NCBI RefSeq assembly: GCF_022837055.1
Contig: NC_062576.1
Location: forward strand, 18,222,144 to 18,286,143
DNA: 64,000 bases
Source of the DNA: Prionailurus viverrinus
Lineage: Eukaryota
Direction of reading: 5' to 3'
Shown: piece by piece, positions 13,144-47,800 of the stretch
Layout: each line of letters begins with the position of its first letter
How positions within the stretch are numbered: the stretch's first letter is position 1
Translations under genes and position numbers: made by a program
Notes under the pieces: generated by a model
The model's database searches: none
What the model saw: only the letters and a program-made list of their open reading frames with translations
What the model was told of the DNA's origin: nothing

Positions 13144-14668
13144 CCACCTGAACCATCTGGGCGCCCCTGAGCTGCCATCTTTGATATCCAGTGTTTGGTT
13201 CCATCCTGTGGGATATACTCCTCATAAGGAAGACGAAAGACAGACAGTAGTAAGAGGAGACAGAGGAGAGAATTAGAGAGAGAGCTTGGGGGAGGAGAAG
13301 AGACAGAGAGAAGAGGCAAAAGGAAAAAGGTATGGAGACAGTGAATACAAAGAACAACCCTTAGAGCAGGAGATGATGGGGAAAGATCAAGACAAACAGA
13401 AAGAGAGAAGTAGGAAAGAAAGAAAACCAGAGAGAACAAGAGAGACAGAACAAAACAGCTGGAATGAGGAAGTAATCTCACCAGGACTTGCTTGTTTTGA
13501 ACTTGAAGCAGAGATCAGACAATGCAACCCTGGCTGCCCTCCTTGCTCCCAGAATCTCCAGGCCAAGAGCCCTGTCCTATTTCCGGCTCCTTAGGTTGGG
13601 GTTCCCTGGCTTTCCTGGGAGGAGTCCTCAGTCCTAGATGGTCTATGAGGGGTGGATATTCTGTTTGTCCAGCTACTAGTCATTAATCACCAAGGCTAAT
13701 GACTCCAGCTTTTCCCTGGGCTCCACCCATCTCTCTGCTTGGGAGGGCCCGCTGACTCAAAGAGCCAATCCTAGAGGAGTCAAGAAGTAGGACTCAGGAG
13801 TCCATCCTAGAGACTTGGGTGGAAGAGAAGAGCCTCAGAAGAGAAGAAATCTATGACATCAAGCTAACCTATGGGAAGGAGCTGTTGCCCCGTGTGGGCT
13901 TTATCCCCCAGAAGATTCAGCCATGGCTCCCAGGAGCCCTGAGGGCCTTGAGACCAGAACTTCCCCCAAGGGAGGAACCGTGTACCGTTACTTCCTCAGC
14001 GTCCCACATGCCTATTGGCCTGACTGCCTGTCTCTCAGGAGGGAGATCGACAGGTGTTAGTTGTCCACCTGCAGCAACACATTACCCTTCTCAGAAAAGT
14101 TTTGTAAACAGTCTGGCAGATTGAGGATGGATAGATGGGGGAAAAAAAGCCAAGTACGGCAAAATATTAACCATGGTAGAATCTATGTGGTGTGCATATG
14201 AGTGTTCACTGTACATTTCTTTCAATTTTTCTCTATGTTTGGATTTTTTTCATATAAAATAACAGGAAAGAGGAAGAAAAAAATTGTATGGAAAATAGTA
14301 GACACTCCTAAGTACAGGGCATAGGGTGTATCATCCCTTCCCATGAGAGTTTAGATTTCAAATGTAGGACAATGAGGACAATGTTTCTCCTGAAAGATGA
14401 CAGATTGCAGGTAGGAGCACCTGTAGAACACCCAAATAGGGGGGCGACAACCTTAGACTACACCCAGAAGAAATTAGTAACTTTGGCCACCCAAAGCTGC
14501 TGGCTCTTCCGTTGGTGACTGTTTCCTCAAGTTTATTCTGTCCATCCTGATACCTGGGCCTTGGCCCAGAGAGGACACCACTCTGACAACTGACCCCACG
14601 AGGCTGATCATGTTTGCTCAGGAGGTGAAGTTCACACGATAAAGAGCAGGGGGAGGGCTTGGACCTGA

Positions 14669-14676
14669 TATAAAAG
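14669..14676 (+). promoter_or_regulatory. ZG16: TATA box (TATAAAAG) of ZG16 copy 1
   Basis: TATAAAAG lies about 25-30 bp upstream of the candidate TSS and about 45 bp upstream of a CCAG|GTGAGG splice donor. The same arrangement is conserved at 41183-41190 in the paralogue. Confidence 0.6.
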
Positions 14677-14699
14677 ATCTGGAAGTCTCAGGGGGGTTA

Positions 14700-14720
14700 C
14701 TTTGCACCTGGAACTGCCAG
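14700..14720 (+). other. ZG16: Putative non-coding first exon (5'UTR) of ZG16 copy 1; donor GT at 14721
   Basis: TATA box followed by ...TTTGCACCTGGAACTGCCAG|GTGAGGGG. The ATG-containing exon is preceded by a canonical acceptor (CTTTCCCCTCCAG|CCCCAGAATG), which implies an upstream non-coding exon. The exact TSS is not determinable from sequence. Confidence 0.45.
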
Positions 14721-15606
14721 GTGAGGGGTGACAGAGGCCTGAGCTAAGATTTGAGTTAGGGGAAATTCAAGCAGAGCTGGACTGCCTGGAGTGAGTGGCA
14801 GGGGAGACCTGTGTGGCAGGTACCTGGGGCGTCTGAGGGAGGTGCAAAGATATCTGGGTCTCAGAGGAAAGACTGGAGATACCTGGGATGCTCGGGGTAT
14901 CGATACAGCCAGATTTGTGTTAGTGGAGAAAGAATTATGACAAATAGACCAGGCATCTGGAATCTGATATCTTGAGCTGTGGTCCAAACTCGTTGTGCAG
15001 TTTCTCAACTGTTCCGATGCTGGTATTGGCGGTCTCATCTATAATCACCCTCACTGCCTGGGTGACACAAAGACGCACCCCTAAAATGCTCCTTTCCTTC
15101 TGATTTGAGACCTGGCTGAAGCTAGGAATTTAAACTCTGCCCCAGATATACCCCAAGCCAGGCCCGTGTATCACAGGCAGGTTGCAGTTAGGTTTTGCTC
15201 AGAATCCTGGTTTGGTAAACTCAACCATCTCTATGGTTTGGAGATGGCCTCCACTTCTTTGAAACTCTTTTCCTGCTTTGTGCCAGGAGGGACCAGGACT
15301 TACACGGGTTGGTCCAGACAGAGGCTTAGATTTGATCTTCTGACTCAGGATGGAACAAGGGGCCGTCTTCCTCGAGACCAGGGAGGACAGAGGGGTTAAG
15401 GACACCGTACCTGCCAGGAGCAGGACTAGAGACTAGGGGCAATCCTTTCTGAGCCCAATACTGGGTCAGTTAGGTCTGAGTTGAGGGACAAAGAGGGCCA
15501 AGTCTCAGTTGGAGATCTAACCCAGGGAAGCCTGGGTAAATGAAGTCCAATGGAAACAGGGTGAATGAACCTTGACATGCTCCTTTCTTTCCCCTCCAGC
15601 CCCAGA

Positions 15607-15661
15607 ATGTTGACCATTACTCTTCTTGCCCTTGTCTGCGCATCAGCCTCAGCCAATGTCA
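15607..15661 (+). CDS. ZG16: ZG16 copy 1 coding exon 1: signal peptide MLTITLLALVCASASANV plus 1 nt; donor GTAAGT at 15662
   Basis: ATG at 15607 preceded by acceptor ...CCTCCAG at 15599. Translation matches the zymogen granule protein 16 N-terminus (human MLTVALLALLCASASGNA from memory). Phase-1 donor. Confidence 0.85.
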
Positions 15662-15845
15662 GTAAGTGAGAGGCCAGAAGACCAGTATTAGCGTCATGGG
15701 AAGACAGCTTCCTGCTCTGCCAGTGGCCAAGGCTCACAGGGGCTGGCTTGGGGTGGTGGGCATCGAGTTGTGGGAGGTGTAGGAGTGGTGAGGAGGGACT
15801 GGAGCTCTTGAGATCTCTCCTTCTGACGCCTACTGTCCCCTCCAG

Positions 15846-15978
15846 TTCAGGCTAGGTCCTCCTCCTACAATGGAGAGTATGGAGGCGGTGGAGGTGAGCG
15901 ATTCTCCCATTCTGGTTACCAGCTGGAGGGTCCCATCACTGCCATCCGTATCCGGGTCAACAGATACTACATCGTAGG
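15846..15978 (+). CDS. ZG16: ZG16 copy 1 coding exon 2: (I)QARSSSYNGEYGGGGGERFSHSGYQLEGPITAIRIRVNRYYIV(G)
   Basis: Acceptor CCCCTCCAG|TTCAGGCT and donor GTAGG|GTAAGA. The reading frame continues from exon 1. The GG-loop poly-Gly motif of jacalin-type lectins is present. Confidence 0.85.
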
Positions 15979-16650
15979 GTAAGATTCTTTGTGTGTCTGT
16001 GGTTTGGGGATCCTCTCCGATCTTACCACACTGGAAAGTTCTCAGTCACTTTGGGTCACATCTGTTTCAGTCAACAAGTCCCAGGGATAACTTGGGATGT
16101 GAAAGGTATCAGGAGGCTGGGGTCTGAGGCCGGTGCTGCTACAGCCCTACAGCCCCCAGCGTGCACGTCTTGGGCAAATCTGTAGCACAGCCACTGAGGC
16201 GCTGGGAAGCTGGCTACTTTGGCCCCACCTGAGGTGTAGGTCCCCTTGGGCATCCTCCATCTTGGATGACGCCTCTCCCCAAAACATGTATCCTTCTGAT
16301 CCTGGAGCAACAGAGTCTCTTCCCTGATGAAAGCCATCCAGAAAGGCCCATCTGCTTCTTTCACGTAGGGGTTGGGGGCACAGCAGGAACCTAGATTTCA
16401 AACTGAAGATCTACCACTGTCTGAGGGGCTCCGGCCAAGTTACTTTTCCTCTCTGAGCCTATCTGTCGGCAAAAGGAGTTGAAGTTTACAGTGGGACATC
16501 AAGGGCTCCCTCATCCCTCACACACCTTGGGACTGGCAGGGGACCTGTCATCTCTGCCACCAGTTTGCAGGTCTCTCGGCTTGTAGGCCAAGAGGTCCTG
16601 AATTCCAGTCACCCTGCTCAGTCTTCCCTCCCTCACCACCCCCCACCCAG

Positions 16651-16966
16651 CCTCCAGGTGCGCTATGGCAAGGTGTGGAGCGACTATGTGGGTGGCACCC
16701 AGGGAGACCTGGAGGAGATTTTCCTGCACCCTGGGGAGTCAGTGATCCAGGTGTCTGGCAAGTACAAGTACTACCTGAGGAAGCTCGTCTTCGTGACTGA
16801 CAAGGGCCGGTACCTGCCTTTTGGGAAAGACACAGGCACGAGTTTCAATGCTGTCCCCTTGTACCCCAACACCGTGCTACGCTTCATCAGCGGCCGATCT
16901 GGTGCCCTCATCAATGCCATCGGCCTGCACTGGGATGTCTATCCCAGCGACTGTGGCAGTTGCTGA
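16651..16966 (+). CDS. ZG16: ZG16 copy 1 coding exon 3: jacalin-like domain body ending ...HWDVYPSDCGSC, stop TGA at 16964-16966
   Basis: Acceptor CCACCCAG|CCTCCAGGTG. Translation LQVRYGKVWSDYVGGTQGDLEEIFLHPGESVIQVSGKYKYYLRKLVFVTDKGRYLPFGKDTGTSFNAVPLYPNTVLRFISGRSGALINAIGLHWDVYPSDCGSC is essentially collinear with human ZG16 (167 aa, from memory). The ORF track frame 16565..16966 covers it. Confidence 0.9.
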
Positions 16967-17044
16967 ACCACAGCCTTGCCCTGGGCCGGGCACTGCAGTG
17001 GGGCTGTGAGAACTACCTTACCACCAACCCCACCTACAGGGTTC

Positions 17045-17050
17045 AATAAA
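17045..17050 (+). terminator. ZG16: AATAAA polyadenylation signal of ZG16 copy 1, about 80 nt after the stop
   Basis: GGGTTCAATAAAAATAATAATAAAAGG lies downstream of the stop codon and is conserved in the paralogue. Confidence 0.6.
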
Positions 17051-18159
17051 AATAATAATAAAAGGACATGGCTGACGCTAGAGTGTATGTGGGTGTGTGC
17101 AGCTGGGACCCGCCTCCTGACTCTGGCTGTGGATGTGTGAATCTCCTTTCTGGCTATCTGTTGGGCGTCTTTCTGGTGAAGAGTGGGAGGGAGAGAGAGA
17201 GGTGTAATGTCTTGGGCTTTTCTTCATAGTTTATTGAGAAGAGGAAAGATTCTGACTTGCTCCAACTCTTTTTTTTCAAGGATAGCTCCTGACACTAGTT
17301 TATCCAAACTGGGGTTCCAAGCCTGAGAGTGCGGCCTAGCTTACTGCCCAAACCCCAGATGTCCAAGTTTCTAGACCATGTCTCCCTTGAGATAGTGTCT
17401 CCCCACCAAAAGGCTGTCACCTGGCTCTCTTGCCATTAACCCACTTGCTGTCTCTGGGTGGCCTGGGCCATTTTCTTTCGTGCTTTCTCAGAATCCGCCT
17501 GACTCCCGAAGCTTGGCCCACGTTTGTGTCAAGAAATCTGTCTCTTACTCCAGCCTGGTTCCTCCCCACCTTTGCCCATAAGCACTGATGCTCCCTGCTT
17601 AGCTCAGCTCGCTCAGAATTGGGCTTCTTTCCCTAGGAAGCCGCTACCTCCTCAACAGCTTCTACTCTGCCAATACCATCCTCAAAAATGGGCATTCCAA
17701 GAGGGATAGATGTCCATGGTGGGTTTCCGTGAACGTCGGGGGTTGGTTACCATTCAGGGGAAGCAACAGACTGGCTGGATAGATTCAGCAAGGATATAAA
17801 GTTGCTTTGGAAATAATTCTTGGGACTCTAGTGCCCAGTCCTAAAATTACCACAGTGTTTTGTTTTTGCTGTTTGGTGGTGGTGGTTGGGGGTGAGGGAA
17901 GTCACTCATTGCTCCCCAAAGATTTATTCACATCATGGGGAATGCCAGAGTCACATCTCTTCCCAATGAGACAAAGATAACAATTGTTTACATGTAATTT
18001 GAGGAAGAAATATTAACATTACAGAAACAAACTCATGCCTAGAGAGTTTTTAGAACAATTCCTTTATTTCTCTCAAAGAATTCCATGGGATGGAGTATCA
18101 TGTCAGAATAATTTGTTTTGAGATATAAAGTACATAAAATCCACCCATTTATTTATTTA

Positions 18160-18365
18160 TTTATTTATTTATTTAAGTTTATTTAAGAGAGAGCATGAGC
18201 AGCGGAGGGGCAAAGAGAAGAGAGACAGAGACAGAGAGAATCCCAAGCAGCCTCCACACTCAGTGCGGAGCACAAAGCGGGGCTCGATCTCACAAACCGT
18301 GAGATCATGACCTGAGCTGAAATCCAGAGTCAGCCACTTCACCGACTGAGCCATCCGGGTGCCAC
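18160..18365 (-). mobile_element. CAN-SINE, antisense; the paralogous copy at about 44690-44905 carries an expanded (GA)n/(GGGAGA)n tract
   Basis: Reverse-complement SINE structure ending ...GAGCCATCCGGGTGCCAC, with (TTTA)n before it. Confidence 0.85.
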
Positions 18366-19607
18366 AATATTCGACCTTTTAAAGCGTGCCATTTCTGACG
18401 TTTTTAGTACATTCACAGATTGTGCAACTATCACCGCTAATGCCAGAATTTCGTCATCAGCTCAGAAAGAAATCCCATCCCCATTAAGCAGTCGCTCCCC
18501 ATTCCTCTCCCCCAGCCCCTCGTAACCACCCATCTACTTTCTGTCTCTATGGATTTCCCTGTTCCAGGCATTTCATGTAGATGGAATCGTCCAGTAGTGT
18601 GGTCTTTTGTGTCTGGCTTCTCCCATTTAGTGTATTTTCAAGGTTCATCCACGTGGTAGCACGTGTCAGGACTTCGTTCCCTTGTGCGGCTGAATCTGAC
18701 ACATCAGATACCTGGTCAACTTCAGGATCAGCTTTGCACCAGCGGGTCTCACCCTCGGCCAGTGAAGTCACTGGCACCTGACAGGCAGCTGCCGCAGAAG
18801 AGGACGAAGTCATGGGATTCCCGGCTTTTGTGTAGTTGACATATTAGGCTTTTGTAAAAGATTTTATGTAAAGAAAATTTTCCTTTCCTTATAAAGTTCT
18901 AAAATTGCTAAATTGAGCTAATCATACGTTTATCAAATGCTCTCTGCTAGGTGCTTGGGAATACAAAGACCACTGAAGATTTCTTTTCCTCTAGTCAAAG
19001 GGAAGACTTGGTGAAGGAAGGGGCGTGTGTGTGTGTGTGTGTGTGTGAGCGTACGCATGTGCGTGTGTGATAGGGGCACAGTACTGGGCTCAGGCCACAG
19101 CCTATGCAGAAATATGAACACATTACAACGACAATTGTACCGTTAAAATGCAAAGTTTAACTGGGTACAGACGAAGTCTCATGGAAAGGCAGGGACCATG
19201 CATGTCATGCTAAACTGTTGAAATTTTATTTTATGGGCTACAAGAAGCCACTGAACCAAGATTTCACCCAGGGGATTGATAAGATTTATACGAAAATCAT
19301 CTTTCCTTGTATAAGTGGGGAAAATGGATTGATGGTGAAGCAGGATGAGATAATAGTTAAGAGACTAGGTCTAGATCAGAAATGATGGATGTTTGAACAA
19401 AGGCAGTGATGTGATGAAAAAAAGATAGGGAGGAATTTGAGAGATTTGAGAGATTTGAAGACTCAGAAAAACTTGATAAAAGAACACATGAGGGTGAATG
19501 AAAGAGGAGAGTCTAGAAAACTATCATGTCTAGTATGGGCAACTGGGAAGAGAGAGATCCTCTCTAAGATGAGGACTACAGGAGAATAAATTAGCTTTTG
19601 GACCTGT

Positions 19608-21235
19608 TGCATTTTTAAATAATACTTATTTATTTTGAGAGGGAGGAAGAGAGAGAAAAAGAGCAAGAGAGTGCAGCAGCGGGTCAGCAAGAGACAGAGA
19701 GAGAGATATCCAACCAGGGTCCGTGCCACTAGTGCAGAGCTTTATGCAAGGCTCGATCTCACAAACCTGAGATCATGACCCGAGCCGAAATCAAGAGTCA
19801 GACGCTTAACTGACTGAGCCAGACAGCTGCCCCAAGGACCTGTTGCATTTTGACATATCTGTGGCACATCCTGATGGAGACCCAACATTACACAGAGGAC
19901 TATTTAGCAATAAAGGTGTGGATACAGCTTTCAGGTAAGCCTTAGATTCAGGAGTCACAAGCACAGAGACAATGGACTTCCAGTGATGGATATGTGGAAG
20001 AAGTCATGTGGGAAAGCTGTGGGCATATAAAATGAGAAGAAGGCTGGCGTCAGAGGATTGGAGAATACCAAAGAGGAATTGGTTAGAGAAAAGAGACGGG
20101 AGGGGCCGGGGAGGGAACGCACTCAGGGGCAAGAGAGAAATTTCATGGAGCTGTTACTGCCATCTAAGCAAGAAAAAGAACGACTTGAGATTCTTTGCCT
20201 TTGGCAATCAGAAGGTCACGAATAATCCCGAAAGAGCTTCGGGGGATTGGGGGAAGCTGAAACCAGGCTGCAGTTGGCTAAGGAATGAATGGGAAATGAG
20301 GAAATACAGGCAGCAAGACTTGAATATTCCAAGATGTCTGGCTCCAGAAAGCCAGAAAATAGGCTAGTCACAGTTATGGGAGATGTAAGGAAAGAGAGAT
20401 TGGGTTTTTTTCCTAGACAGGGGAGACGTGAGCATGTTTATATGACAAAGAAGGAGTCAGAGGGAGGAAGAGGCTGAGGATTCAGGAAAGAGGAGGGAAC
20501 TGATGGAACGAGGTCTCGCAGGAGATTGGGGAGGATGTGTTACGTAGCTGTTGGGGCAGGAAACCTTAAGAAAGAAGAAAATGAAGATGAGTGAAGGTAC
20601 AGGTTAGTTTGTAGAGGGAGTGGGTATGGAGCAAACCTTGAGGGAATTAATACCCAACCTTGACTTGTTCGGTTGCATAAGTAAACCTGCCTGTTGTATG
20701 AGTCACATTCTTCCAGAGGAAAACCAGCAGGAGACATACGTACATATATACATAAAGAGTTTTTTTTTTATGTTTTTATTTATTTAAATGCTTTATTTTT
20801 GTGAGAGAAGGAGAAAGAGCACAAGAGGAGGAGGGGCAGAGAGAGAGAGAGAGAGAGAGAGGAAGACAGAATCCGAAGCAGGCTCCAGCTGTCAGCACAG
20901 AGCCCACTCAGGGCTTGAACTTGTGAACCGCAACATCATGACCTGAGCTGAATTTGGATGCTTAACCGAAGGGGCCACCCAGGCACCGCTTTAAGGTTAT
21001 TTATTTATTTAAATATTTTATGTTTATTTTGAGAGAGAGAGAGACAGAGAGAGAGTGCACACACTAGCAAGCATGAGTTGGGGAGGAGTAGAGTGAGGGA
21101 GACAGAACCCTAAGTGGGCTTCAGGCTCTGAGCTGTCAGCACAGAGCCAGACATGGGGCTTGAACTCATGAACTTGAGAGCATGACCTGAGCTGAAGTCA
21201 GACGCTTAATTGACTGAGCCACCCAGGCGTCCCTT
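19608..21235 (-). mobile_element. Three antisense CAN-SINEs (about 19608-19835, 20765-20995, 21000-21235); paralogues at about 46150-46375 and 47285-47740
   Basis: Each runs from a T-rich start through a (GA)n tract and GAATCC...CAGGCTCCAG core to ...GAGCCACCCAGGCGCCCC (or a variant) at the end. Confidence 0.85.
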
Positions 21236-21570
21236 CTTATGCCTGTTGTTGGAGGTATTTTTTTATGCTTTTTTTTCTCCTTTGTTGACTTATGAGCTAT
21301 ACCTCTTTCAGTGTGTGTGTGTAGTTGCTTTAGGGTTTATAGCATTCAACTTTAACCTCTCTCAGTCTGCTTCTGAGAAGCATTACACCACATCATACAT
21401 AGTATAAAAACCTTGCAACTGTAGACTTCCATTTCACCTCTCCTGGCCTCTATGCTATCATTGTGATGTATTTAACTTTTATATGTATTTTAACCTCCAC
21501 AGTATACTATTCTTTTTTTTGAAAAAAATCAATCATCTTTGAAAGGTACTTAAATAATAAGAAAATAAGT

Positions 21571-21640
21571 CATACATATATATATATATATACATATATA
21601 TGTATAATGTATATATATGTTTATATATATACACATATAT
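21571..21640. repeat. (TA)n-rich simple repeat
   Basis: CATACATATATATATATATATACATATATATGTATAATGTATATATATGTTTATATATATACACATATATATCC. Confidence 0.85.
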
Positions 21641-21689
21641 ATCCATATGTCTACTATTTTTTTAATTTTTAAATTTTTATATAATCTCC

Positions 21690-22975
21690 ATATCCAACGT
21701 GTGGCTCGGTCTCACAACCCAGAGATCAAGAGTCACGTGGTCTACTGACTGAGCCAGCCAAGTGCCCCTATATCTAAGTTTATTTATTTTGAGAGACAGA
21801 AAGAGCAGAGGAGGGGCAGAGAGAGAGAGAGGGAGAGAGAGAATCTCAGGCAGGCTCTGTGCTGTGAGCATGGAGCCTGATGTGGGCTCAAACTGACGAG
21901 CCGTGAGATCATGACCTGAGTGGAACCAAGAGTTGGACGCCTAACTGACTGAGCCACCCAGGCGCCCCTACAATTTCTACTATTTCTGATGCTCCTCATT
22001 CCTTTTGTGAATACAGATTCCTTCTAGGATTATTTTTCTGCTGCTCAAAGGATGTCATTTTACAATTTCATTGGGTGTGGGTCTTCTGGTTCAGCATTTG
22101 TAAATCTGAAAATGTCTCTTTTTTGCCTTCACTTTTTTTGAATTGAGATGTAATGGACATACAACATTATATTAGTTGAAATGTATAATGTGATGATTTG
22201 ATATCTGTGTATATTGCACAATGATTACCACAAGAAGTCTAGTTAACATCCGTCTTCACACCTAGTCACAGTTTTCTTTTCTTGTGATGACAACTTTTAA
22301 GATCTACTATCTTAGCAACTTTCCAGTATAGATTACAATATTGTTAACCATAGGCACCACACGGTACATTACATCCTCAGGACTTATTTATTTTATGACT
22401 CTACTTTGGATCTTTTGACCCCTTTCACTCACCAATCTGTTCTTAGGATCTATGAATTTGGGCTTTGCTTTTTTTTTTTTAATTTTATTTACTTATTTAT
22501 TTATTTTAAGTAAGCTTCACGCCCACCATGGAGCCCAACATAAAGCTTGAACTCACGACCCCAAGATCAAGATCCGAGCTAAGATCAGGAGTTGGATGCT
22601 TAACCACTGAGTTGGACACTTAACCATCTTAACCACGTTAAAGATTTACTTTTGTTTATTTTAAAGGTTACTTACTGTTGAGAGAGAGAGAACATAGGGA
22701 AAGGGCAGAGAGAGGAGGAGAGAGAGAGACAATCCCAAGCAGGCTCCTCACCATCAGCATGGAGCTGGACTTGGGGCTTGAACTCATGAACTGTGACATC
22801 ATGACCTGAGCCAAAGTCGGAACTTAACCAACTGAGCCACCCACCCAGGCGCCACTAAAGATTTTAGTTTTTAAATAATCTCCATACTCAATGTGGGGCT
22901 TCGGGCTTGAACTCGCAACCCCAAGCCCAAGAGGTGCATGATTTACTGATGAAGCCAGCCAGGTGCCCCTTTGGG
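21690..22975 (-). mobile_element. Five antisense SINEs (about 21690-21770 short, 21775-21965, 22470-22630 short, 22650-22860, 22862-22975 short)
   Basis: Reverse-complement SINE cores such as ...CTCACAACCCAGAGATCAAGAGTCACGTGGTCTACTGACTGAGCCAGCCAAGTGCCCC and ...TGAGCCACCCACCCAGGCGCCAC. Confidence 0.75.

Positions 22976-24810: not shown

Positions 24811-24824
<14 letters not shown>

Positions 24825-24843
<19 letters not shown>
24825..24843. repeat. (TG)n microsatellite inside the L1 5' region
   Basis: TGTGTGTGTGTGTGTGTGTGTGTGTGTG, followed by about 120 bp of T-rich low-complexity sequence. Confidence 0.9.
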
Positions 24844-24937
24844 CTTCGTTTTTAATTTTTTAAGTTTAATATATTTCAATTTTAGTATTTTTAAAATTTT
24901 ATTTTTTTACCTCATTCATTCTTTTTCTCCCTTCAAA

Positions 24938-25820: not shown

Positions 25821-25929
25821 GAGAAAAGATGAAACAAAAAACACAAATAAATAAATAAAGGCCAAAAGCAACAAGGACTAGAAAGGACCAGAGAACACCA
25901 GCAGACACTCCAACTCCACAAACAACATA

Positions 25930-32268: not shown

Positions 32269-32299
32269 TTAGTCATTCTTCAAAAAAAAAAAACCACTC

Positions 32300-34314: not shown

Positions 34315-34359
<45 letters not shown>

Positions 34360-37650: not shown

Positions 37651-38144
37651 ACAAGTGGCCTCTACAGCAGGGAGTGGAGGGACCCTCTTTGCAGCTTAGT
37701 GAGGTCACTTCTCTCTCAAGACTTTACTTTCTTCACGGGAACCATGAAGGGTGAACAGAAAAGCACTGTTCACATTTGCTTTTGTGGTAAAACCCTTTGT
37801 TCAAATGAAACCACCATCTACCCAAGGCGTAAATGAGGAGACAGAGAATATTTTTTTCTTAACAGGAAAGAGATCTGCTATCATTTGGAAATACATTTTG
37901 AAAAATCAGTGATGGGAGTCAAGGGGCAGATTCTCCCCCCTGGGGTGTGAATTTGCACCAGGATTTAAGAGGCTTTGTCTGAGAGAGGAAATAGTGCTCT
38001 GAGCAGGGGCCCCTTGAGACAAGGGTTGGGGGGTATGAGAGCTCACACTGTTCCTGCCTCCTGAGGTGGGCTCCCCCTCCCCCTTCCCCTCCACACACCC
38101 TCATTCCCCACCCTGTCCATTCTCCACTTTTAAGAGTGGAACGA

Positions 38145-38369
38145 GGGGCGCCTGGGTAGCGCAGTCGGTTAAGCATCCGACTTCAGCCAGGTCACGATCT
38201 CGCGGTCCGTGAGTTCGAGCCCCGCGTCGGGCTCTGGGCTGATGGCTCAGAGCCTGGAGCCTGTTTCCGATTCTGTGTCTCCCTCTCTCTGCCCCTCCCC
38301 CGTTCATGCTCTGTCTCTCTCTGTCTCAAAAATAAATAAACGTTAAAAAAAATAAATAAAAAAAAAAAA
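38145..38369 (+). mobile_element. Young CAN-SINE (CpG-intact), flanked by an AAGAGTGGA direct repeat; near-identical to the copies at 32056 and 60631
   Basis: GGGGCGCCTGGGTAGCGCAGTCGGTTAAGCATCCGACTTCAGCCAGGTCACGATCTCGCGGTCCGTGAGTTCGAGCCCCGCGTCGGGCTCTGGGCTGATGGCTCAGAGCCTGGAGCCTGTTTCCGATTCTG... Confidence 0.85.
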
Positions 38370-39424
38370 GAGTGGAGAAACCACTCGGTGGCTTCCCTCA
38401 CCTTCAGGAGGAATCCAAACTCCTGACCACAGCCTCCCAGGCCCTGTACTACCTGCCCGGCGGCTGCTGCCCACACCTCCCCTCCCGCTGGCAGCCACAC
38501 TTCCCAGCAGCCACCCTGCCCTCCCGCACACTGTTCCGCACACTTCCTGCTCAGGGTTTGCGTACCGTTCCCTCACCAGGTCCAGTCTTCTCCCAAACGT
38601 CTGTAGTCTCTCCATCACTTTGGTGAGGTCTTCACAAATGTTACCCGTGGAGAGGGGGGCCTCCCAGGCAGAGAGACAGCTTTCCCAGCCCTTCTCCTGG
38701 TTCACTCTGCCTCATTTCCTCCTGGCCTGGCCCATGGGAACGAGTTGTTCAATTGTCCGACCCCCCACCCTGCAGTGAAAGCTCCAGCACTACGATTTGA
38801 CCCTTCCTCTGTGACTGTCTGTCCAGCATCTAGGACGGTTCCTCCAACATACAGATGCTGCATAAATGTGCTGAGTGAGTCGCTTTGCCAAGGGGCAGGG
38901 AAGACAGCAAGAGAATGAGTGTCAGCTGCCCTGCCATAGCAGAAAGCTTGGGGAGGTTTTGGACTTCGCAGCCTTGGGACTGGGCAGGGATGACCTTCAC
39001 TGCCTGTAGGACTGGGGAAGGTCGGCCCCCAGGGGACACATGGGCAAAATGTGACAAGTTCAAATGGGAGCAATGGAACTGGACCTGATGGCATACCAAC
39101 ATTAGCTGCACAGTGGTCTAGCTGGTCTCTGGGACCCACAGGCGATGAGCCCTGAGACCCCTGCCACTGGAATAAAGTCCTCTCTTTACACTCTGGAGAG
39201 GAGATGGAGGGCCTGCTGGGGGGAACCAGGGACCAGTCTATGGGCATCGGGGAGACTCTGACTCTCTGCATAGGTGGGGCCAGTGCATCAGAGTGAACCT
39301 ATGACAAGTGTGATGGTCTCCCCCTGAGGGTCCCAGATGTGTCATGTATGGAAATATGAGGGTATTTTCCTAAGGCATTCACTGCAGACCTCTCTGGGCT
39401 ACCATATTTTTTTTCTTAATCTTT

Positions 39425-39610
39425 TATTTATGTTTAGAGAGAGAGAGAGAGAGAGAGAGAGTGAGTGGGGAAGGGGCGGGGGGTGGAAACAGAATCTGAA
39501 GTAGGCTCCAGGCTCTGAGCCATCAGCAGAGCCCGATGCAGCTCTCGAACCCACGAGTGGTGAGATCACTATTGGTCCAATTCTTAACCAACTCAGTCAC
39601 CTGGATGCCC
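39425..39610 (-). mobile_element. CAN-SINE, antisense; right flank of the copy-B-specific block and start of the ZG16 duplicon
   Basis: (GA)n...GAATCTGAAGTAGGCTCCAGGCTCTGAGCCATCAGCAGAGCCCGATGCAGCTCTCGAACCCACGAGTGGTGAGATCAC...CTGGATGCCCC. Confidence 0.85.
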
Positions 39611-41182
39611 CTGAGCTGCCATCTTTGATATCCAGTGTTTGGTTCCATCCTGTGGGATATACTCCTCATAAGGAAGAGGAAAGACAGACAATAGTGAGAG
39701 AAGACAGAGGAAAGATTTAGAGAGAGAGCTTGGAGGAGGAGAAGAGACAAAGAGAAGAGGCAGAAGGAAAAAGGGATGGAGACAGTGAATACAAAGAACC
39801 CTTAGAGCAGGAGATGATGGGGAAAGATCAAGACAAACGGAAAGAGAGAAGTAGGAAAGAAAGAAAACCAGAGAGGACAAGAGAGACAAAACAAAACAGA
39901 TGAATGAGGAAGTTATCTCACCAGGACATGCTTGTTTTGAACTTGAAGCAGAGATCAGACAATGCAACCCTGGCTGCCCTCTTTGCTCTCGGAATCTCCA
40001 GACCAAGAGCCCTGTCCTATTTCTGGCTCCTTAGGTTGGGGTTCCCTGGCTTTCCTGGGAGGAGTCCTCAGTCCTAGATGGTCTATGAGGGGTGGATATT
40101 CTGTTTGTCCAGCTACTAGTCATTAATCACCAAGGCTAATGACTCCAGCTCTTCCCTGGGCTCCATCCATCTCTCTGCTTGGGAGGGCCCGCTGACTCAG
40201 AGGGTCAAAGAGCCAGTCCTAAAGGGGTCAGGAAGTAGGACTCAGGAGTCCGTCTAGAGACTCCGGTGGAACAGAAGGGCCTCGGAAGAGAAGAAATCTA
40301 TGACACGAATCTAAGGCCTATGGGAAGGAGCTGTTGCCCCGTGTGGGCTTTATCCTCCAGAAGATTCAGTCATGGCTCCCAGGAGCCCCGAGGGCCTTGA
40401 GACCAGAATTTCCCCCAAGGGAGGAACCATGTACCGTTACTTCCTCAGCGTCTCACATGCCTATTGGCCTGACTGCCTGTCTCCCAGGCGGGAGATTGAC
40501 AGGTGTTCGTTGTCCACCAGCAGCAACACGTTACCCTTCTCAGAAAAGTTTTGTAAACAGTCTGGCAGATTGAGGATGGATAGATGGGGGGGAGGGGGGG
40601 GCAGAAAAAGGCAAGTACAGCAAAGTATTAACCATGGTAGAATCTATGTGGTGTGTATATGAGTGTTCACTGTATAATTCTTTAAATATTTCCTATGTTT
40701 GAATTTGTTTTTTTCATATAAAATAACCGGGATGAGAAGGAAAAAAATTGTCTGGAAAATAGTAGACACTCCTAAGTACAGAGTGTTGGGTGTATCATCC
40801 CTTCCCAGAAGAATCTAGATTTCAAATGCAGGACAGTGAGGACAAGGTTTCTCCTGAAAGATGACAGATTGCAGGTAGGAGCACCTGCAGAACACCCAAA
40901 TAGGGGGGTGACAACCTTAGACTACATCCAGAAGCACTTAGCTACTTTGCCCACCAAAAGCTGCTGGCCCTTGGGTTGGTGACCTTTTCTCAAGTTTATT
41001 CTGCCCATCCTGAGATCTGGGCCTTGGCCCAGATTGGACCCCACCCTGCCACATGAAACTCTTGGGGGGAGAGCAGGATATGGTATTCCAGACCTTGCCT
41101 GACCACTGACCCTAGAGGCTGAGCATGTTTGCTCAGGTGGTGAGGCCACACGATAAAGAGAAGGCAGAGGGCTTGGACCTGG

Positions 41183-41190
41183 TATAAAAG
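41183..41190 (+). promoter_or_regulatory. TATA box (TATAAAAG) of ZG16 copy 2
   Basis: Same TATAAAAG...CCAG|GTGAGGGG arrangement as copy 1; the non-coding first exon is about 41214-41234. Confidence 0.55.
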
Positions 41191-42163
41191 ACCTGGAAGT
41201 TTCCAGGTGATTACTTTGCACCTGGAACTGCCAGGTGAGGGGTGACAGAGGCCTGGGCTAAGGGGTGAAAGGGATGATTGGATTTGAGTTTCGGGGGAAT
41301 TCAAGCAGCGGTGGACAGCAGCCTGCCTGGAGTGAGCGGCAGGGGAGACCTGTGTGGCAGGTACCTGGGGCATCTGAGGGAGGTGCAAAGTATCTGGGTC
41401 TCAGAGGAAGGACGGGAGACACCTGGGATGCTCGGGGTATCGATACAGCCAGATTTGTGTTAGTGGAGAAAGAATTATGACAAATAGACCAGGCATCTGG
41501 AATCTGGTATCTTGAGCTGTGGTCCAAACTCGTTGTGCAGTTTCTCAACTGTTCCGATGCTGGTATTGGCACAGTCTCGTCTATAATCACCCTCACTGCC
41601 TGGGTGACACAGAGACGCACCCCTAAAATGCTCCTTTCCTTCTGATTTGAGACCCAGCTAAAGCTAGGAATTTAAACTCTGCCCCAGAGGTCCCCCAAGC
41701 CAGCCCCATGTGTCACAGGCAGGTTGCAGTTAGGTTTTGCTCAGAATCCTGGTTTGGTAAACTCAACCATCTCTATGGTTTGGAGATGGCCTCCACTTCT
41801 TTGAAACTCTTTTCCTGCTTTGTGCCAGGAGGGACCAGGACTTACATGGGTTGGTCCAGACAGAGGCTTAGGACTGACCTTCTGACTCAGGATGGTCAAC
41901 AAGGGGGTCAACAAGGGGGTCGACTACCTCGAGACCAGGGAGGACAGAGGGGTTAAGGACACCGTACCTGCCAGGAGCAGGACTAGAGACTAGGGGCAAT
42001 TCTTTCTGAGCCCAAGACTGGGTCAATTAGGTCTCAGTTGAGGGACAAAGAGGGCCGAGTCTCAATTGGAGATCTAACCCAGGGAAGCCTGGGTAAATGA
42101 AGTCCAAAGGAAACAGGGTGAATGAACCTTGACGTTCTCCTTTCTTTCCCTTCCAGCCCCAGA

Positions 42164-42218
42164 ATGTTGACCATTGCTCTTCTTGCCCTTGTCTGTGCAT
42201 CAGCCTCAGCCAATGCCA
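42164..42218 (+). CDS. ZG16 paralogue (copy 2) coding exon 1: MLTIALLALVCASASANA plus 1 nt; donor GTAAGT at 42219
   Basis: ATG at 42164 preceded by acceptor CCCTTCCAG at 42148-42156. It is 2 aa different from copy 1. Confidence 0.8.
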
Positions 42219-42402
42219 GTAAGTGAGAGGCCAGGAGCCCAGTATTAATGTCATGGGAAGACAGCTTCCTGCTCTGCCGGTGGCCAAGGCTTGCAGGGGC
42301 TGGCTTGGGGTGGTGGGCGTCGAGTTGTGGGAGGTGTAGGAGTGGTGAGGAGGGACTGGAGCTCTTGAGCTCTCTCCTTCTGACGCCTACTGTCCCCTCC
42401 AG

Positions 42403-42535
42403 TTCAGGCTAGGTCCTCCTCCTACAATGGAGAGTATGGAGGCGATGGAGGTGAGCAATTCTCCCATTCTGGTTACCAGCTGGAGGGCCCCATCACTGCC
42501 ATCCGGGTCCGCATCGACAACAACTACATCATAGG
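42403..42535 (+). CDS. ZG16 paralogue coding exon 2: (I)QARSSSYNGEYGGDGGEQFSHSGYQLEGPITAIRVRIDNNYII(G)
   Basis: Same splice signals as copy 1. It is 133 nt with about 12 nt differences, 8 of them non-synonymous. These include G to D inside the Gly-rich GG loop and RVNRYY to RIDNNY. Confidence 0.8.
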
Positions 42536-43207
42536 GTAAGATTCTTTGTGTGTCTGTGGTTTGGGGGTCATCTCCGATCCTACCACACTGGAAAGTTCTC
42601 AGTCACTTTGGGTCACATCTGTTTCAGTCAACAAGTCCCAGGGACAACTTGGGATGTGAAAGGTATCAGGAGGCTGGGGTCTGAGGCCGGTGCTGCTACA
42701 GCCCTACAGTCCCCAGCGTGCACGTCTTGGGCAAATCTGTAGCACAGCCACTGAGGCGCTGGGAAGCTGGCTACTTTGGCCCCACCTGAGGTGTAGGTCC
42801 CCTCGGGCATCCTCCATCTTGGCTGACACCTCTCCCCAAAACATGTATCCTTCTGATCCTGGGGCAACAGAGTCTCTTCCCTCATGAAAGCCATCCAGAA
42901 AGGCCCATCTGCTTCTTCCACGTAGGGGTTGGGGGCACAACCGGAACCTAGATTTCAAAGTGAAGCTCTACCACTGTCTGGGGGGCTCCGGCCAAGTTAC
43001 TTTTCCTCTCTGAGCCTATCTGTTGGCAAAAGGAGTTGAAGTTCACAGTGGGACCTCAAGGGCTCCCTCATCCCTCACACACCTTGGGACTGGCAGGGGA
43101 CCTGTCATCTCTGCCACCAGTTTGCAGGTCTCTCGGCTTGTAGGCCAAGAGGTCCTGAATTCCAGTCACCCTGCTCAGTCTTCCCTCCCTCACCAGCCCC
43201 CACCCAG

Positions 43208-43511
43208 CCTCCAGGTGCGCTATGGCAAGGTATGGAGCGACTATGTGGGTGGCACCCAGGGAGACCTGGAGGAGATTTTCCTGCACCCCGGGGAGTCAGT
43301 GATCCAGGTGTCTGGCAAGTACGACTACTACCTGAGGAAGCTCGTCTTCGTGACTGACAAGGGCCGGTACCTGCCTTTTGGGACAGACATAGGCAGGAGT
43401 TTCAGTGCTGTCCCCTTGTACCACAACACCGTACTACGATTCATTAGTGGTCGCGCTGGCACCCTCATCAATGCCATAAGCCTGCACTGGGACTTATACC
43501 GCAGGTATTGA
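43208..43511 (+). CDS. ZG16 paralogue coding exon 3, ending ...HWDLYRRY with stop TGA at 43509-43511; four codons shorter than copy 1 and lacking both C-terminal Cys
   Basis: ORF track 43023..43511. Translation LQVRYGKVWSDYVGGTQGDLEEIFLHPGESVIQVSGKYDYYLRKLVFVTDKGRYLPFGTDIGRSFSAVPLYHNTVLRFISGRAGTLINAISLHWDLYRRY. The splice acceptor is intact. The premature stop arises by substitution (GACTGTGGC to TATTGAACC), not a frameshift. Confidence 0.8.
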
Positions 43512-43577
43512 ACCAGTTGCTGAACCGCTGCAGCCGGCTGTGAGAACCGCCTTACCACTACCCCACCTACAGGGTTC

Positions 43578-43583
43578 AATAAA
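43578..43583 (+). terminator. AATAAA polyadenylation signal of ZG16 copy 2
   Basis: GGGTTCAATAAAAATAATAATAAAAGG is conserved with copy 1. Confidence 0.55.
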
Positions 43584-44728
43584 AATAATAATAAAAGGAC
43601 ATAGCTGACGCTGGAGTGTATGTGGGTGTGTGCAGCTGGGACCCGCCTCCTGACTCTGGCTGTGGATGTGTGAATGTCCTTTCTGGCTATCTATAGATGT
43701 CTTTCTGGTGAAGAGTGGGAGGGAGAGAGAGAGGTGTAAAGTCTTGGGCTTTTCTTCCTGGTTTATGGAGAAGAGATAAGATTCTGGATTGCTCCAACTC
43801 TTTTTTTCAAGGATAGCTCCTGAGACTGTTTACCCAAACTGGAGTTAAGCCTGAGGGTGCAGCCTCGCTTCCTCCCCAAACCCCAGATGTCCCAGTCTCT
43901 AGGCCTTGTCTCCCCTTGAGATAGTGTTTCCCCACCAAAAGGCTGTCACCTGGCTCTCTTGGCATTAACCACTTGCTGTCTCTGGGTGGCCTGGGCCATT
44001 TTCTTTCATGCTTTCCCAGAATCCACCTGTCTCCCGAAGCTTGGCCTAAGTTTTTGTTGAGAACTCTGTCTCTTACTCCAGCCTAGTCCCTCCCCACCTT
44101 TGCCCATAAGCACTGATGCTCCCTGATTAGCTTAGCTCGCTCAGAATTGGGCTTCTTTCCCTAGGAAGCTGCCACCTCCTCAACAGCTTCTATTCTGCCA
44201 ATTCCATCCTCAAAAAAAGGGCATTCCAAGAGGGATAGATGTCCATGGTGGGTTTCCATGAACGTCGGGGGTTGGTTACCATTCAGGGGAAGCAACAGAC
44301 TGGCTGGATAGATTCAGCAAGGATACAGAGTCACTTTGGAAATAATTCTTGGGACTCTAGTGCCCAGTCCTAAAATTACCACAGTGTTTTGTTTTTGCCT
44401 TTTGGTGGTGGTGGTTGGGGATGAGGGAAGTCACTCATTGCTCCCCAAAGACTTATTCACATTATGGTGAATGCCAGAGTCACATTTCTTCCCAATTAGA
44501 CAAAGATAACAATTATGTACATGTAGTTTTAGAAAGGAATATTAACATTACAGAAACAAACTCATGCCTAGATACTTTTTAGAACAATTCCTTTATTTCT
44601 CTCAAAGAAACATGGGATGGAGTATCATGTCAGAGTAATTTGTTTTGAGATATAAAGTACATAAAATTCACCCATTTATTTAGTTATTTAAGTTTATTTG
44701 AGAGAGAGCATGAGCGGCACAGGGATAG

Positions 44729-44749
44729 AGAGAGGGAGGGAGGGAGAGA

Positions 44750-44797
<48 letters not shown>

Positions 44798-44806
44798 CCC
44801 AAGCAG
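44729..44806. repeat. (GGGAGA)n/(GA)n expansion within an antisense SINE; not expanded in the paralogous SINE at about 18230
   Basis: GAGAGAGGGAGGGAGGGAGAGAGAGGGAGAGAGAGAGAGAGAG...(GA)n, about 75 bp, versus GGGGCAAAGAGAAGAGAGACAGAGACAGAGAGAATCC in copy A. Confidence 0.9.
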
Positions 44807-47800
44807 CCTCCACACTCAGTGCGGAGCACAAAGCGGGGCTCGATCTCACAAAGTGTGAGATCATAACCTCAGCTGAAATCCAGAGTCAGCCAGCCATCCG
44901 GGTGCCCCAATATTTGACCTTTTAAAGCGTGCCATTTCCGTCGTTTTTAGTATTCACGGATTGTGCAACCATGACCACTAATGCCAGAATTTCGTCATCA
45001 GCTCAGAAAGAAATCCCATCCCCATTAAGCAGTCGCTCCCCATTCCTCTCCCCCAGCCCCTCGTAACCACCCATCTACTTTCTGTCTCTATGGATTTCCC
45101 TGTTCCAGGCATTTCATGTAGATGGAATCGTCCAGTAGTGTGGTCTTTTGTGTCTGGCTTCTCCCATTTAGCGTATTTTCAAGGTTCATCCACGTGGTAG
45201 CACGTGTCAGGACTTCGTTCCCTTGTGCGGCTGAATCTGACACATCAGATACCTGGTCAACTTCAGGATCAGCTTTGCACCAGCGGGTCTCACCCTCGGC
45301 CAGTGAAGTCACTGGCACCTGACAGGCAGCTGCCGCAGAAGAGGACGAAGTCATGGGATTCCCGGCTTTTGTGTAGTTGACATATTAGGCTTTTGTAAAA
45401 GATTTTATGTAAAGAAAATTTTCCTTTCCTTATAAAGTTCTAAAACTACTAAATTGAGCTAATCATACGTTTATCAAATGCTCTCTGCTAGGTGCTTGGG
45501 AATACAACGACCACTGAAGATTTCTTTTCCTCTAGTCAAAGGGAAGACTTGGTGAAGGAAGGGGTGTGTGTGTGTGTGAGCGTATGCATGTGCATGTGTG
45601 ATAGGGGCACAGTACTGGGCTATGCAGTATCAGCCTATGCAGAAATATGAACACATTAAAATGACAATTGCACAGTTAAAATGCAAAGTTCTACTGGGTA
45701 AAGATGAAGCCTCATGGAATGGCAGGGACCATGCATGTCATGCTAAACTGTTGAAACTTTATTTTATGGGCTACAAGAAGCCAATGAACCAAGATTTTGC
45801 TCAGGGGATTGGTAAGATTTATACGAAAATCATCTTTCCTTGTATAAGTGGGGAAAATGGATTGAAGGTGAAGCAGGATGAGATAATAGTTAAGAGACTA
45901 GGTCTAGATCAGAAATGATGGATGTCTGAACAAAGGCAGTGATGTGAGGGAAAAAAGAGAGGGAGGAATTTGAGAGATTCGAGGGGGAGGGGAGACTTAG
46001 AAGAACTTGATAAAAGAACCCATGAAGGTGAGTCAAAGAGGAGAGTCTAGAAGAACTATCATGTCTAGTATGGGCAACTGGGAAGAGAGAGATTCTTTCT
46101 AAGATGAGGACTACAGAAGAAGAAATTAGCTTTTGGACCTGTTGCATTTTTAAATAATATTTATTTTGAGAGGGAGGAAGAGAGAGAAAGAGAGCAAGAG
46201 AGTGGAGTAGCAGGGAAGTGAGAGAGAGAGAATCCCAAGCAGGGTCCGTGCCTCTAGTGCAGAGCTTTATGCAAGGCTCGATCTCACAAACCTGAGATCA
46301 TGACCCGAGCCGAAATCAAGAGTCAGACGCTTAACTGACTGAGCCAGACAGCTGCCCCAAGGACCTGTTGCATTTTGACATATCTGTGGCACATCCTGAT
46401 GGAGACCCAACATTACACAGAGGACTATTTAGCAATAAAGGCTCGGATACAGCTTTCAGGTAAGCCTTAGATTCAGGAGTCACAAGCACAGAGACAATGG
46501 ACTTCCAGTGATGGATATGTGGAAGAAGTCACGTAGGAAAACTGTGGGCATATAAAATGAGAAGAAGGCTGGCGTCAGAGGATTGGAGAATACCAAAGAG
46601 GAATTGGTTAGAGAAAAGAGACGGGAGGGGCCGGGGAGGGAACGCACTCAGGGGCAAGAGAGAAATTTCATGGAGCTGTTACTGCCATCTAAGCAAGAAA
46701 AAGAACGACTTGAGATTCTTTGCCTTTGGCAATCAGAAGGTCACGAATAATCCCGAAAGAGCTTCGGGGGATTGGGGGAAGCTGAAACCAGGCTGCAGTT
46801 GGCTAAGGAATGAATGGGAAATGAGGAAATACAGGCAGCAAGACTTGAATATTCCAAGATGTCTGGCTCCAGAAAGCCAGAAAATAGGCTAGTCACAGTT
46901 ATGGGAGATGTAAGGAAAGAGAGATTGGGTTTTTTTCCTAGACAGGGGAGACGTGAGCATGTTTATATGACAAAGAAGGAGTCAGAGGGAGGAAGAGGCT
47001 GAGGATTCAGGAAAGAGGAGGGAACTGATGGAACGAGGTCTCGCAGGAGATTGGGGAGGATGTGTTACGTAGCTGTTGGGGCAGGAAACCTTAAGAAAGA
47101 AGAAAATGAAGATGAGTGAAGGTACAGGTTAGTTTGTAGAGGGAGTGGGTATGGAGCAAACCTTGAGGGAATTAATACCCAACCTTGACTTGTTCGGTTG
47201 CATAAGTAAACCTGCCTGTTGTATGAGTCACATTCTTCCAGAGGAAAACCAGCAGGAGACATACGTACATATATACATAAAGAGTTTTTTTTTTTATGTT
47301 TTTATTTATTTAAATGCTTTATTTTTGTGAGAGAAGGAGAAAGAGCACAAGAGGAGGAGGGGCAGAGAGAGAGAGAGAGAGAGAGGAAGACAGAATCCGA
47401 AGCAGGCTCCAGCTGTCAGCACAGAGCCCACTCAGGGCTTGAACTTGTGAACCGCAACATCATGACGTGAGCTGAAGTCGGACGCTTAACCAACTGAGCC
47501 ACCCAGGTTCCCCTTTAAGATTTTATTTTTATTTATTTATTTACATTTTTAACACTTATTTATTTTGAAAGGGGTGGGGCAGAAAGAGGGAGACAGAATC
47601 CATATCAGGCTGCAGGCTCTGAGCTGTCAGCACAGAGCGGGACTTGGGGCTTGAACTCATGAACCGCGAGATCGTGACCTGAGCAGAAGTTGTACACTTA
47701 GCCACTGAGCCACCCAGGTGCCCTTAAGATTTTATTTTTAAGTCATCTCTACCCCCAGTGTGGAGCTTGAACTCACCACCCCAAGATCAAGAGTTGCCTG

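Follow-up and report, generated by a model that had tools for sequence, protein, structure and literature searches.

We analysed a 64,000-nucleotide stretch of the fishing cat genome (Prionailurus viverrinus; NCBI RefSeq assembly GCF_022837055.1, contig NC_062576.1, positions 18,222,144 to 18,286,143 of the forward strand), hereafter called the window, and observed that it carries two ZG16-type lectin genes in tandem. The account that we favour, and consider likely as a whole, has a ~17-kb segment with the entire ZG16 gene duplicated head to tail in the feliform stem. The two units have kept exchanging sequence by gene conversion, which holds their non-coding DNA at ~6% divergence. Unequal recombination has produced hybrid genes and, by inference, copy-number changes among cat species. 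The first gene (copy 1) is the conserved, canonical ZG16. The second (copy 2) retains promoter and splice sites, a signal-peptide sequence and the beta-prism lectin domain, and has lost the C-terminal CXXC tail. Copy 2 is probably a functional, secreted, fast-evolving lectin with an altered ligand-binding surface and altered partner interactions.

Self-BLAST of the window returned a direct-repeat pair, 13029-21235 and 39486-47725, with 90.6% identity over 8379 columns (E = 0). These 8.2-kb main blocks differ by 6% substitutions on average. Upstream of them, self-BLAST also found weaker collinear pieces (4348-13146 and 31683-35908, 76-93% identity), and the whole duplicated unit measures ~17 kb (~4348-21235 and 31683-47725) and recurs at an interval of 26.5-27.3 kb. 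With a ZG16 protein as probe, we located one ZG16-type gene with three coding exons in each unit. The genes lie head to tail, with an ATG-to-ATG offset of 26,557 bp from copy 1 to copy 2. The 45-kb locus of the snow leopard, from an independent assembly, was collinear with window positions 5584-53440 and contained both copies, 23.7 kb apart. These data bear out an earlier, sequence-only reading of the window, which had reported a tandem ZG16 duplication in direct orientation with the genes 26.5 kb apart. The extent given there (13158-47740) does hold the duplication and is too narrow, as the units reach wider. The two units and the spacer between them are:

4348 to 21235, plus strand: duplication unit 1, with an older, patchy part (4348-13146) and a well-conserved main block (13029-21235), from self-BLAST and repeat families
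21236 to 31682, no strand: spacer between the units, 10.4 kb, with carnivore short interspersed nuclear elements (SINEs) and a decayed plus-strand long interspersed nuclear element 1 (L1) at ~24400-30200
31683 to 47725, plus strand: duplication unit 2, with its main block at 39486-47725, from self-BLAST and repeat families

The coding exons of copy 1 (15607-15661, 15846-15978 and 16651-16966) and copy 2 (42164-42218, 42403-42535 and 43208-43511) are bounded by GT/AG splice sites, and their phases are identical. In both copies, the donor CCAG/GTGAGG of a non-coding first exon lies ~45 nt downstream of the TATAAAAG box. The TATA box and this donor are kept in both fishing-cat copies, both snow leopard copies and the hyena. 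Transcription of copy 1 would start at about 14698. On sequence comparison, the N-terminus, MLTIALLALVCASASA, hardly differs from the signal sequence of human ZG16. We located every element that had been described for both copies (a TATA box, a non-coding first exon, three coding exons and a polyA signal):

14669 to 14720, plus strand: copy 1 core promoter and short non-coding exon 1; TATA box TATAAAAG at 14669-14676, exon end at 14720 (CCAG/GTGAGG)
15600 to 15661, plus strand: copy 1 exon 2; acceptor ...ctccag/CCCCAGA, ATG at 15607, putative signal peptide
15846 to 15978, plus strand: copy 1 exon 3; codons 19-63, GG loop
16651 to 17080, plus strand: copy 1 last exon; TGA at 16964-16966, protein of 167 amino acids (aa) ending PSDCGSC, AATAAA at 17045 and 17057 in the 3' untranslated region
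41183 to 41234, plus strand: copy 2 core promoter and non-coding exon 1; TATAAAAG at 41183-41190, exon end at 41234 (CCAG/GTGAGG)
42157 to 42218, plus strand: copy 2 exon 2; ATG at 42164, putative signal peptide intact
42403 to 42535, plus strand: copy 2 exon 3; G33D, R37Q, and residues 56-59 changed from VNRY to IDNN
43208 to 43613, plus strand: copy 2 last exon; TGA at 43509-43511, protein of 163 aa ending DLYRRY, no CXXC, AATAAA at 43578 and 43590

Copy 2 ends early: a TGA at codon 164 cuts off its four C-terminal residues, the CXXC motif, so copy 2 is not a canonical ZG16. We observed no frameshift, internal stop or broken splice site in copy 2; the shared terminal stop was its only pseudogene-like sign. 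The description of two complete ZG16 genes is therefore right about the intact frames and signals of both and wrong about the end of copy 2, which stops four residues early.

We assessed the age of the duplication with coding trees of exons 2 and 3, the only exons for which meerkat was used. Cat copy 2 grouped with the ZG16-like genes of hyena and meerkat (97% bootstrap on exons 2 and 3, 72% on third positions), and monophyly of cat copy 1 and copy 2 received 0.6% bootstrap. When sites were polarised with the canonical-type panda copy, 16 derived states were shared by cat copy 2 with hyena and/or meerkat, compared to 0 shared by the cat copies alone and 1 in the third grouping. The 16 sites include two that are synonymous and two beyond the premature stop, so selection on the protein cannot account for the sharing. 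Cat copy 2 and hyena ZG16-like also have in common a compound change in codons 162-165 (AGC>AGG, TGT>TGA, GGC>ACC); the C-terminal codons read ...AGG xxx TGA ACC AGT TGC TGA versus canonical ...AGC GAC TGT GGC AGT TGC TGA. Meerkat ZG16-like carries a variant of this change. A TGA at codon 164 followed by ACC or ATC occurs together with D57 and T122 in copy 2 of five cat species and in the ZG16-like genes of hyena and meerkat. Synonymous divergence was 0.18 between copy 1 and copy 2, 0.16 between cat and hyena, and 0.37-0.43 between cat and panda. These sequence comparisons place the duplication and the loss of the tail in the feliform stem, later than the divergence from Caniformia and earlier than the parting of Felidae from Hyaenidae and Herpestidae, at roughly 35-55 million years ago. 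An all-mammal protein neighbour-joining tree, considered for the independence of the '-like' genes, lumped fast-evolving sequences with weak support, probably through long-branch attraction, and was not used.

We compared copies 1 and 2 of the fishing cat and the snow leopard site by site over the 8.2-kb block. Copy 1 and copy 2 differed by 6.0% substitutions in the fishing cat and 5.9% in the snow leopard. Between the two species, copy 1 orthologues differed by 3.0% and copy 2 orthologues by 4.9%, and any cat copy differed from hyena ZG16-like by 14.4%. The informative sites comprised 238 in the orthology pattern (AABB), 80 in the pattern of within-species homogenisation (ABAB) and 4 in the ABBA pattern, and AABB and ABAB sites alternated in runs. 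Divergence between the fishing-cat copies ranged from 0 to 16% across 400-bp windows, and the most diverged tracts (10-16%) were 13028-13399, 14172-14678, exon 3 and 20830-21235. Sliding-window distances and ABAB runs delimited a region of recent exchange, in copy-1 coordinates:

18544 to 20829, plus strand: recent gene-conversion tracts

Divergence in these tracts was 0-0.7% at 18544-18943 and 1.8% at 19717-20112, and the copies were identical over 717 bp at 20113-20829. These sequence patterns indicate repeated interlocus gene conversion between the units. Non-coding divergence is low (~6%) because gene conversion recurs, and active conversion makes the divergence between copy 1 and copy 2 unusable for dating. 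The sequence-only reading had given a paralogue divergence of 1-9%, to be replaced by the measured 0-16% (mean 6% substitutions), and had taken it as an argument for a real, old event. The snow leopard locus and the feliform clade show that the event is real and old; the divergence itself cannot date it, as conversion holds it down.

We next to these comparisons counted substitutions within Felidae by parsimony. Copy 1 had 4 non-synonymous and 16 synonymous changes (ratio of non-synonymous to synonymous rates, omega, 0.08), and copy 2 had 19 and 14 (omega 0.43, P = 0.015 for omega < 1). The counts differed between the copies (P = 0.010, Fisher's test). Copy 1 omega values of 0.07-0.16 indicate strong purifying selection. 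The copy 2 protein evolves about five times faster than copy 1 and is still under detectable, though relaxed, purifying selection. The 163-codon frame was the same in five cat copy 2 genes and hyena ZG16-like. A neutral expectation was calculated from locus rates (3.7% stop-creating substitutions, 0.069 frameshifting indels per substitution, 14.5% divergence, 435 nt). Between cat and hyena, a neutral copy 2 should have accumulated ~7.4 disabling events; none was seen (P about 6e-4 for none), an estimate that repair by conversion and annotation bias somewhat weaken. The comparison with other felids, which the sequence-only reading had named as a check, found the copy 2 frame intact in five cats and no inactivating lesion in copy 2.

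About 25 codons separate copy 2 from copy 1. Both copies retain the mannose-contacting residues Gly35 and Tyr104. At the C-terminus, copy 1 ends in CGSC and copy 2 in RRY; the CXXC tail of human ZG16 is a flexible, redox-active disulfide that is oxidised by QSOX1 and PDI and is structurally uncoupled from the sugar site (PMC9291870). K102D and K122T take away two of the three lysines of the basic patch of copy 2, and the Lys102/Lys106/Lys122 patch has been proposed to bind phosphate groups (PMC4059138). The change of residues 56-59 from VNRY to IDNN includes N57D and R58N, and in rat ZG16p position 58 was mapped among the residues that bind heparin (PMC4059138). G33D, beside the GG loop, and R37Q occur only in fishing-cat copy 2 and lower the predicted isoelectric point from 9.1 to 8.1. 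The '-like' genes of panda, rodents and rabbit vary at positions that are changed in copy 2 (57, 102, 122, the 147-151 loop and the C-terminal cysteines). The divergence of copy 2 would represent the sub- or neofunctionalisation typical of duplicated mucosal lectins.

The GXXXD motif (Gly147...Asp151 in human ZG16p) is incomplete in both cat copies, which have Asn151 (GALIN / GTLIN). Engineered D151N in human ZG16p diminished mannose binding and enhanced heparin binding (PMC4059138). Asn151 was also observed in ZG16 of bears, sea lion, bats, sloth, hedgehog, elephant shrew and a marsupial. Being common across mammals, it was dropped as a special loss of the mannose-binding Asp. The residue bears on sugar specificity and does not affect membership of the ZG16 lectins. 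Natural ZG16 sugar specificity may, judging from these residues, differ across mammals.

Three other explanations were weighed against this evidence. Copy 2 could be a non-functional or dying duplicate that looks intact only through conversion by copy 1. Its protein changes fast (omega 0.43 in cats, 0.64-0.91 versus hyena), its conserved CXXC tail is gone and conversion tracts are plentiful. In addition, the cheetah model is truncated, meerkat ZG16-like is without a detectable signal-peptide exon, and the annotated ZG16-like of the leopard cat is a copy-2/copy-1 hybrid. However, omega within cats is significantly below 1 (P = 0.015), and exon 3 follows the orthology pattern, not conversion, yet is open in five cats and hyena. 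Neutral evolution between cat and hyena predicts about 7 disabling events, compared to 0 seen. Copy-2-specific residues and the stop have been kept since before the cat/hyena split, so the coding sequence was not reset by conversion. We therefore regard a dying copy 2 as unlikely.

An independent duplication in the cat lineage after the hyena split, with convergence and long-branch attraction producing the resemblance to the hyena and meerkat '-like' genes, seems to us very improbable. It would fit the 6% between the cat copies versus 14.4% from each to hyena ZG16-like, and the most diverged windows (10-16%) barely reach the cat-hyena level. The '-like' paralogues of panda and rodents, which are independent in the panda and may be so in rodents, change at the same positions, and the all-mammal protein tree lumps every '-like' gene, so attraction does occur. 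Against this stand the 16 versus 0 shared-derived sites, among them synonymous and post-stop sites invisible to selection, and the four-nucleotide compound change at codons 162-165 in both cat copy 2 and hyena ZG16-like. The clade with hyena and meerkat also holds at 72% on third positions, and gene conversion accounts for the low non-coding divergence. The view of the second copy as an assembly artefact, uncollapsed haplotype or misjoin draws on the general risk in repeated regions. We give it next to no credence: a divergence of 6%, and of 10-16% in places, is far beyond allelic variation, the flanks around the copies differ, the independent snow leopard assembly has the same layout, and copy-2 orthologues occur in five or more other cat assemblies.

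Several points weigh against a feliform-stem duplication with a functional copy 2. The dating uses one paralogue, ZG16-like, each from hyena and meerkat, and the hyena flanks do not fit a simple two-copy layout. Pairwise omega of ZG16-like between families was 0.5-0.9 and for the majority of pairs not significantly below 1 (P > 0.1). Lesions could be mended by conversion from copy 1, which would inflate the apparent retention of open frames. The protein database is a biased sample, as it shows annotated, hence intact, genes only. At position 102, the 139-aa cheetah copy 2 model has the Lys of copy 1. In meerkat ZG16-like no signal-peptide exon could be detected, and the gene lies in a rearranged locus with inverted pieces. 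The short cheetah model and the missing meerkat exon may reflect lineage-specific decay or assembly problems.

The array was not the same in all species. The sequence-only reading had counted two copies, which holds for the fishing-cat and snow leopard assemblies and is too simple for the leopard cat, with its hybrid middle copy, and perhaps for the tiger, with its 50.9-kb spacing. In the leopard cat, the sister species of the fishing cat, the annotated ZG16-like (XP_043416033, CM028194.1:18663669-18685025) is a hybrid of 167 aa with CXXC. We compared this stretch with window positions 14209-26969 and 32389-40683. Its 5' part comprises the copy 2 upstream spacer, 99% identical to the window, followed by a promoter and exon 1 of copy 2 type. 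Its 3' part is of copy 1 type from exon 3 into the spacer, up to window position 26969, and is 0.5-3.6% diverged from fishing-cat copy 1. The hybrid lies 29.0 kb downstream of the leopard cat's own copy 1. Unequal crossing-over is expected to leave such a gene in the middle of an array, which implies at least three units there. In the tiger (CM031446.1), the copy 1 gene is at 17,923,177 and the copy 2 gene at 17,974,114, 50.9 kb apart. This is about twice the spacing in the snow leopard (23.7 kb) and the fishing cat (26.6 kb), and suggests an extra unit or a large insertion between the copies. The leopard cat hybrid and the tiger spacing suggest that copy number varies among cat species.

The promoter-proximal part of copy 2 (window 40274-41230) has two forms that are 8-13% apart and at odds with the species tree. 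Fishing cat, tiger and clouded leopard have one form; snow leopard, lynx and the leopard cat hybrid have the other. The pattern suggests either a third paralogous lineage or differential unit loss and, like the tiger spacing and the mixed flanks of hyena ZG16-like, is compatible with an array in which units come and go. Copy 1 of both fishing cat and snow leopard is without a 54-bp segment ~90 bp upstream of the TATA box, near 14583. The segment is retained in copy 2 (~41075-41128), hyena ZG16-like and panda; the derived promoter structure in cats is thus that of the canonical gene. Fishing-cat copy 1 has an in-frame ATG ten codons before the start (window 15577-15606), where GTT stands in the other copies. 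In Panthera and Lynx, RefSeq isoform models of 177-181 aa begin even further upstream, at another in-frame ATG (MNLDVLLSFPSSPR...). These models are probably annotation artefacts of unspliced intron 1 and not real N-terminal extensions.

In the 21 kb of the hyena contig that we examined, ZG16-like has a unique copy-2-type 5' flank (3874-7295, matching window 35713-39457) and a unique copy-1-type 3' flank (15507-16996, matching window 21066-22572), followed by L1 and not by KIF22-side DNA. In the meerkat, L1 follows the gene in the same way. Hyena and meerkat differ from the cat layout in gene order or copy number.

The giant panda has two ZG16-type genes ~1.4 kb apart and a stray partial exon 3 at 12496-12603 (stretch 10001-13087). 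The pair occupies one locus position, with a copy-1-type upstream flank and a copy-2-type downstream flank. Both genes have lost the C-terminal cysteines, one by a 1-nt frameshift and its neighbour by TGT>TGA. The diverged panda copy grouped with feliform ZG16-like at codon positions 1 and 2 (95%) and with its own neighbour at third positions, a conflict that reflects either convergence or local conversion. The architecture, the different truncations and the third-position grouping indicate that the panda duplication is independent of the feliform one.

Both genes are already in public annotation. The copy 1 protein exactly matches fishing-cat RefSeq XP_047694817.1 ('ZG16', 167 aa) and the copy 2 protein exactly matches XP_047695187.1 ('ZG16-like', 163 aa); both models are on one 42.2-Mb contig. 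The Pfam Jacalin domain (PF01419) scored 75.3 bits in copy 1 and 69.4 bits in copy 2 (cut-off 22), and copy 2 matched the human ZG16 structure 7o4p over residues 21-160 (E = 1.4e-72). Copy-2-type models are annotated in tiger, lion, leopard, snow leopard, clouded leopard, lynx, cheetah and domestic cat, and are mostly 163 aa or N-terminally extended (cheetah, 139 aa). Further ZG16-like annotations were found in hyena, meerkat, panda, rabbit (a large cluster), voles, deer mice, spiny mouse, gerbils, marsupials and monotremes. A full-text literature search found no description of a feliform ZG16 duplication, and nothing on copy-2-specific transcripts or peptides in cats. ZG16-like is an uncharacterised member of a known lectin family. 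The sequence-only reading had seen in the pair a lineage-specific gain in a carnivore and a plausible innate-immune or dietary adaptation. The pair is in RefSeq, and the ZG16-like lineage is common to cats, hyena and meerkat, so it is no gain at the species level; a link to carnivory is unsupported, given the ZG16-like genes of panda, rabbit, voles, deer mice, gerbils, marsupials and monotremes.

We also compared the two genes with known systems. Human and rat ZG16 (ZG16p; PDB 3APA, 7O4P) is a jacalin-related beta-prism lectin of zymogen granules and goblet cells. Copy 1 is its orthologue, with the same C16orf54-KIF22 position, three coding exons, 167 aa, Jacalin domain, Gly35, Tyr104 and CXXC. 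Copy 2 is like human ZG16 in fold and signal-peptide sequence; unlike it, copy 2 has lost the CXXC tail and carries K102D, K122T, N57D and R58N, to which the fishing cat adds G33D and R37Q. Both cat copies differ from human ZG16 in having Asn151 for Asp. ZG16B (PAUF), a human ZG16 paralogue, resembles copy 2 as a secreted jacalin-fold paralogue with diverged binding loops, but is ancient and unlinked. Copy 2 matches ZG16B at E = 9e-13 versus ZG16 at E = 1e-72, and is a much younger tandem derivative of ZG16 than ZG16B. The RefSeq 'ZG16-like' genes of other mammals are, like copy 2, extra ZG16-derived genes that vary at the same places. The panda pair is unlike the cat pair in being an internal duplication with a 1.4-kb period at one locus position, with other truncating mutations.

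The neighbouring genes confirm the placement of the array between the C16orf54 orthologue and the 5' end of KIF22, as first proposed from the sequence:

1546 to 2220, minus strand: C16orf54 orthologue, upstream neighbour, single-exon coding sequence, 224 aa; full-length Pfam DUF4689 match (E = 4.2e-122)
55716 to 55773, plus strand: KIF22 exon 1, downstream neighbour, MDAGGTAQLRRREMAAAIS/gt; start codon at 55716

KIF22 exon 2 lies at 62310-62507, with 91% identity to human KIF22 residues 24-89. Human 16p11.2 has a single ZG16 between C16orf54 and KIF22.

The spacer L1 retains an RNA-binding domain of open reading frame 1 (25166-25780), a double-stranded RNA-binding domain (25542-25817) and a reverse transcriptase fragment (27544-27798). 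A 2.9-kb internal stretch of this L1 (26803-29673) is absent in the snow leopard. Segment 35908-39486 of unit 2 has no counterpart upstream of copy 1. SINEs are present at both unit boundaries (3991-4213 and 31452-31659; 21070-21233 and 47571-47723). The duplication junction has since been overwritten by L1 and SINE insertions. Another SINE, at 38145-38369, has 95% identity to copies at 32056, 57104 and 60633. It is missing at this site in leopard cat and snow leopard, which marks it as a young insertion.

Like other concertedly evolving tandem pairs, the locus is a patchwork of orthology tracts and conversion tracts, with hybrid genes and hints that copy number varies between close species. 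It is a textbook example of conversion and unequal crossing-over, not previously described for this locus, and its mechanism is ordinary. It is also a clean case of tandem-paralogue divergence failing to date a duplication under active gene conversion. Otherwise, this is an ordinary lineage-specific lectin duplication, already annotated, and no link to diet is in evidence. ZG16 helps hold bacteria away from the colonic epithelium. Tentatively, ZG16-like might be a distinct gut or pancreatic lectin that has been maintained in Feliformia since before the cat/hyena split, and its tail-less, less basic surface might confer a different glycan or glycosaminoglycan specificity or a different behaviour towards mucus partners. 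On the same tentative footing, array copy number (two or three units, with hybrids) appears variable between sister species and may be selected, and the panda, rodent and rabbit duplicates would have converged at the same ligand-facing positions. Neither the physiological ligands of ZG16 nor the role of its CXXC tail is clear yet (PMC9291870). A long-surviving tail-less paralogue in which two of the three basic-patch lysines are replaced is a natural comparison for asking what those features do.

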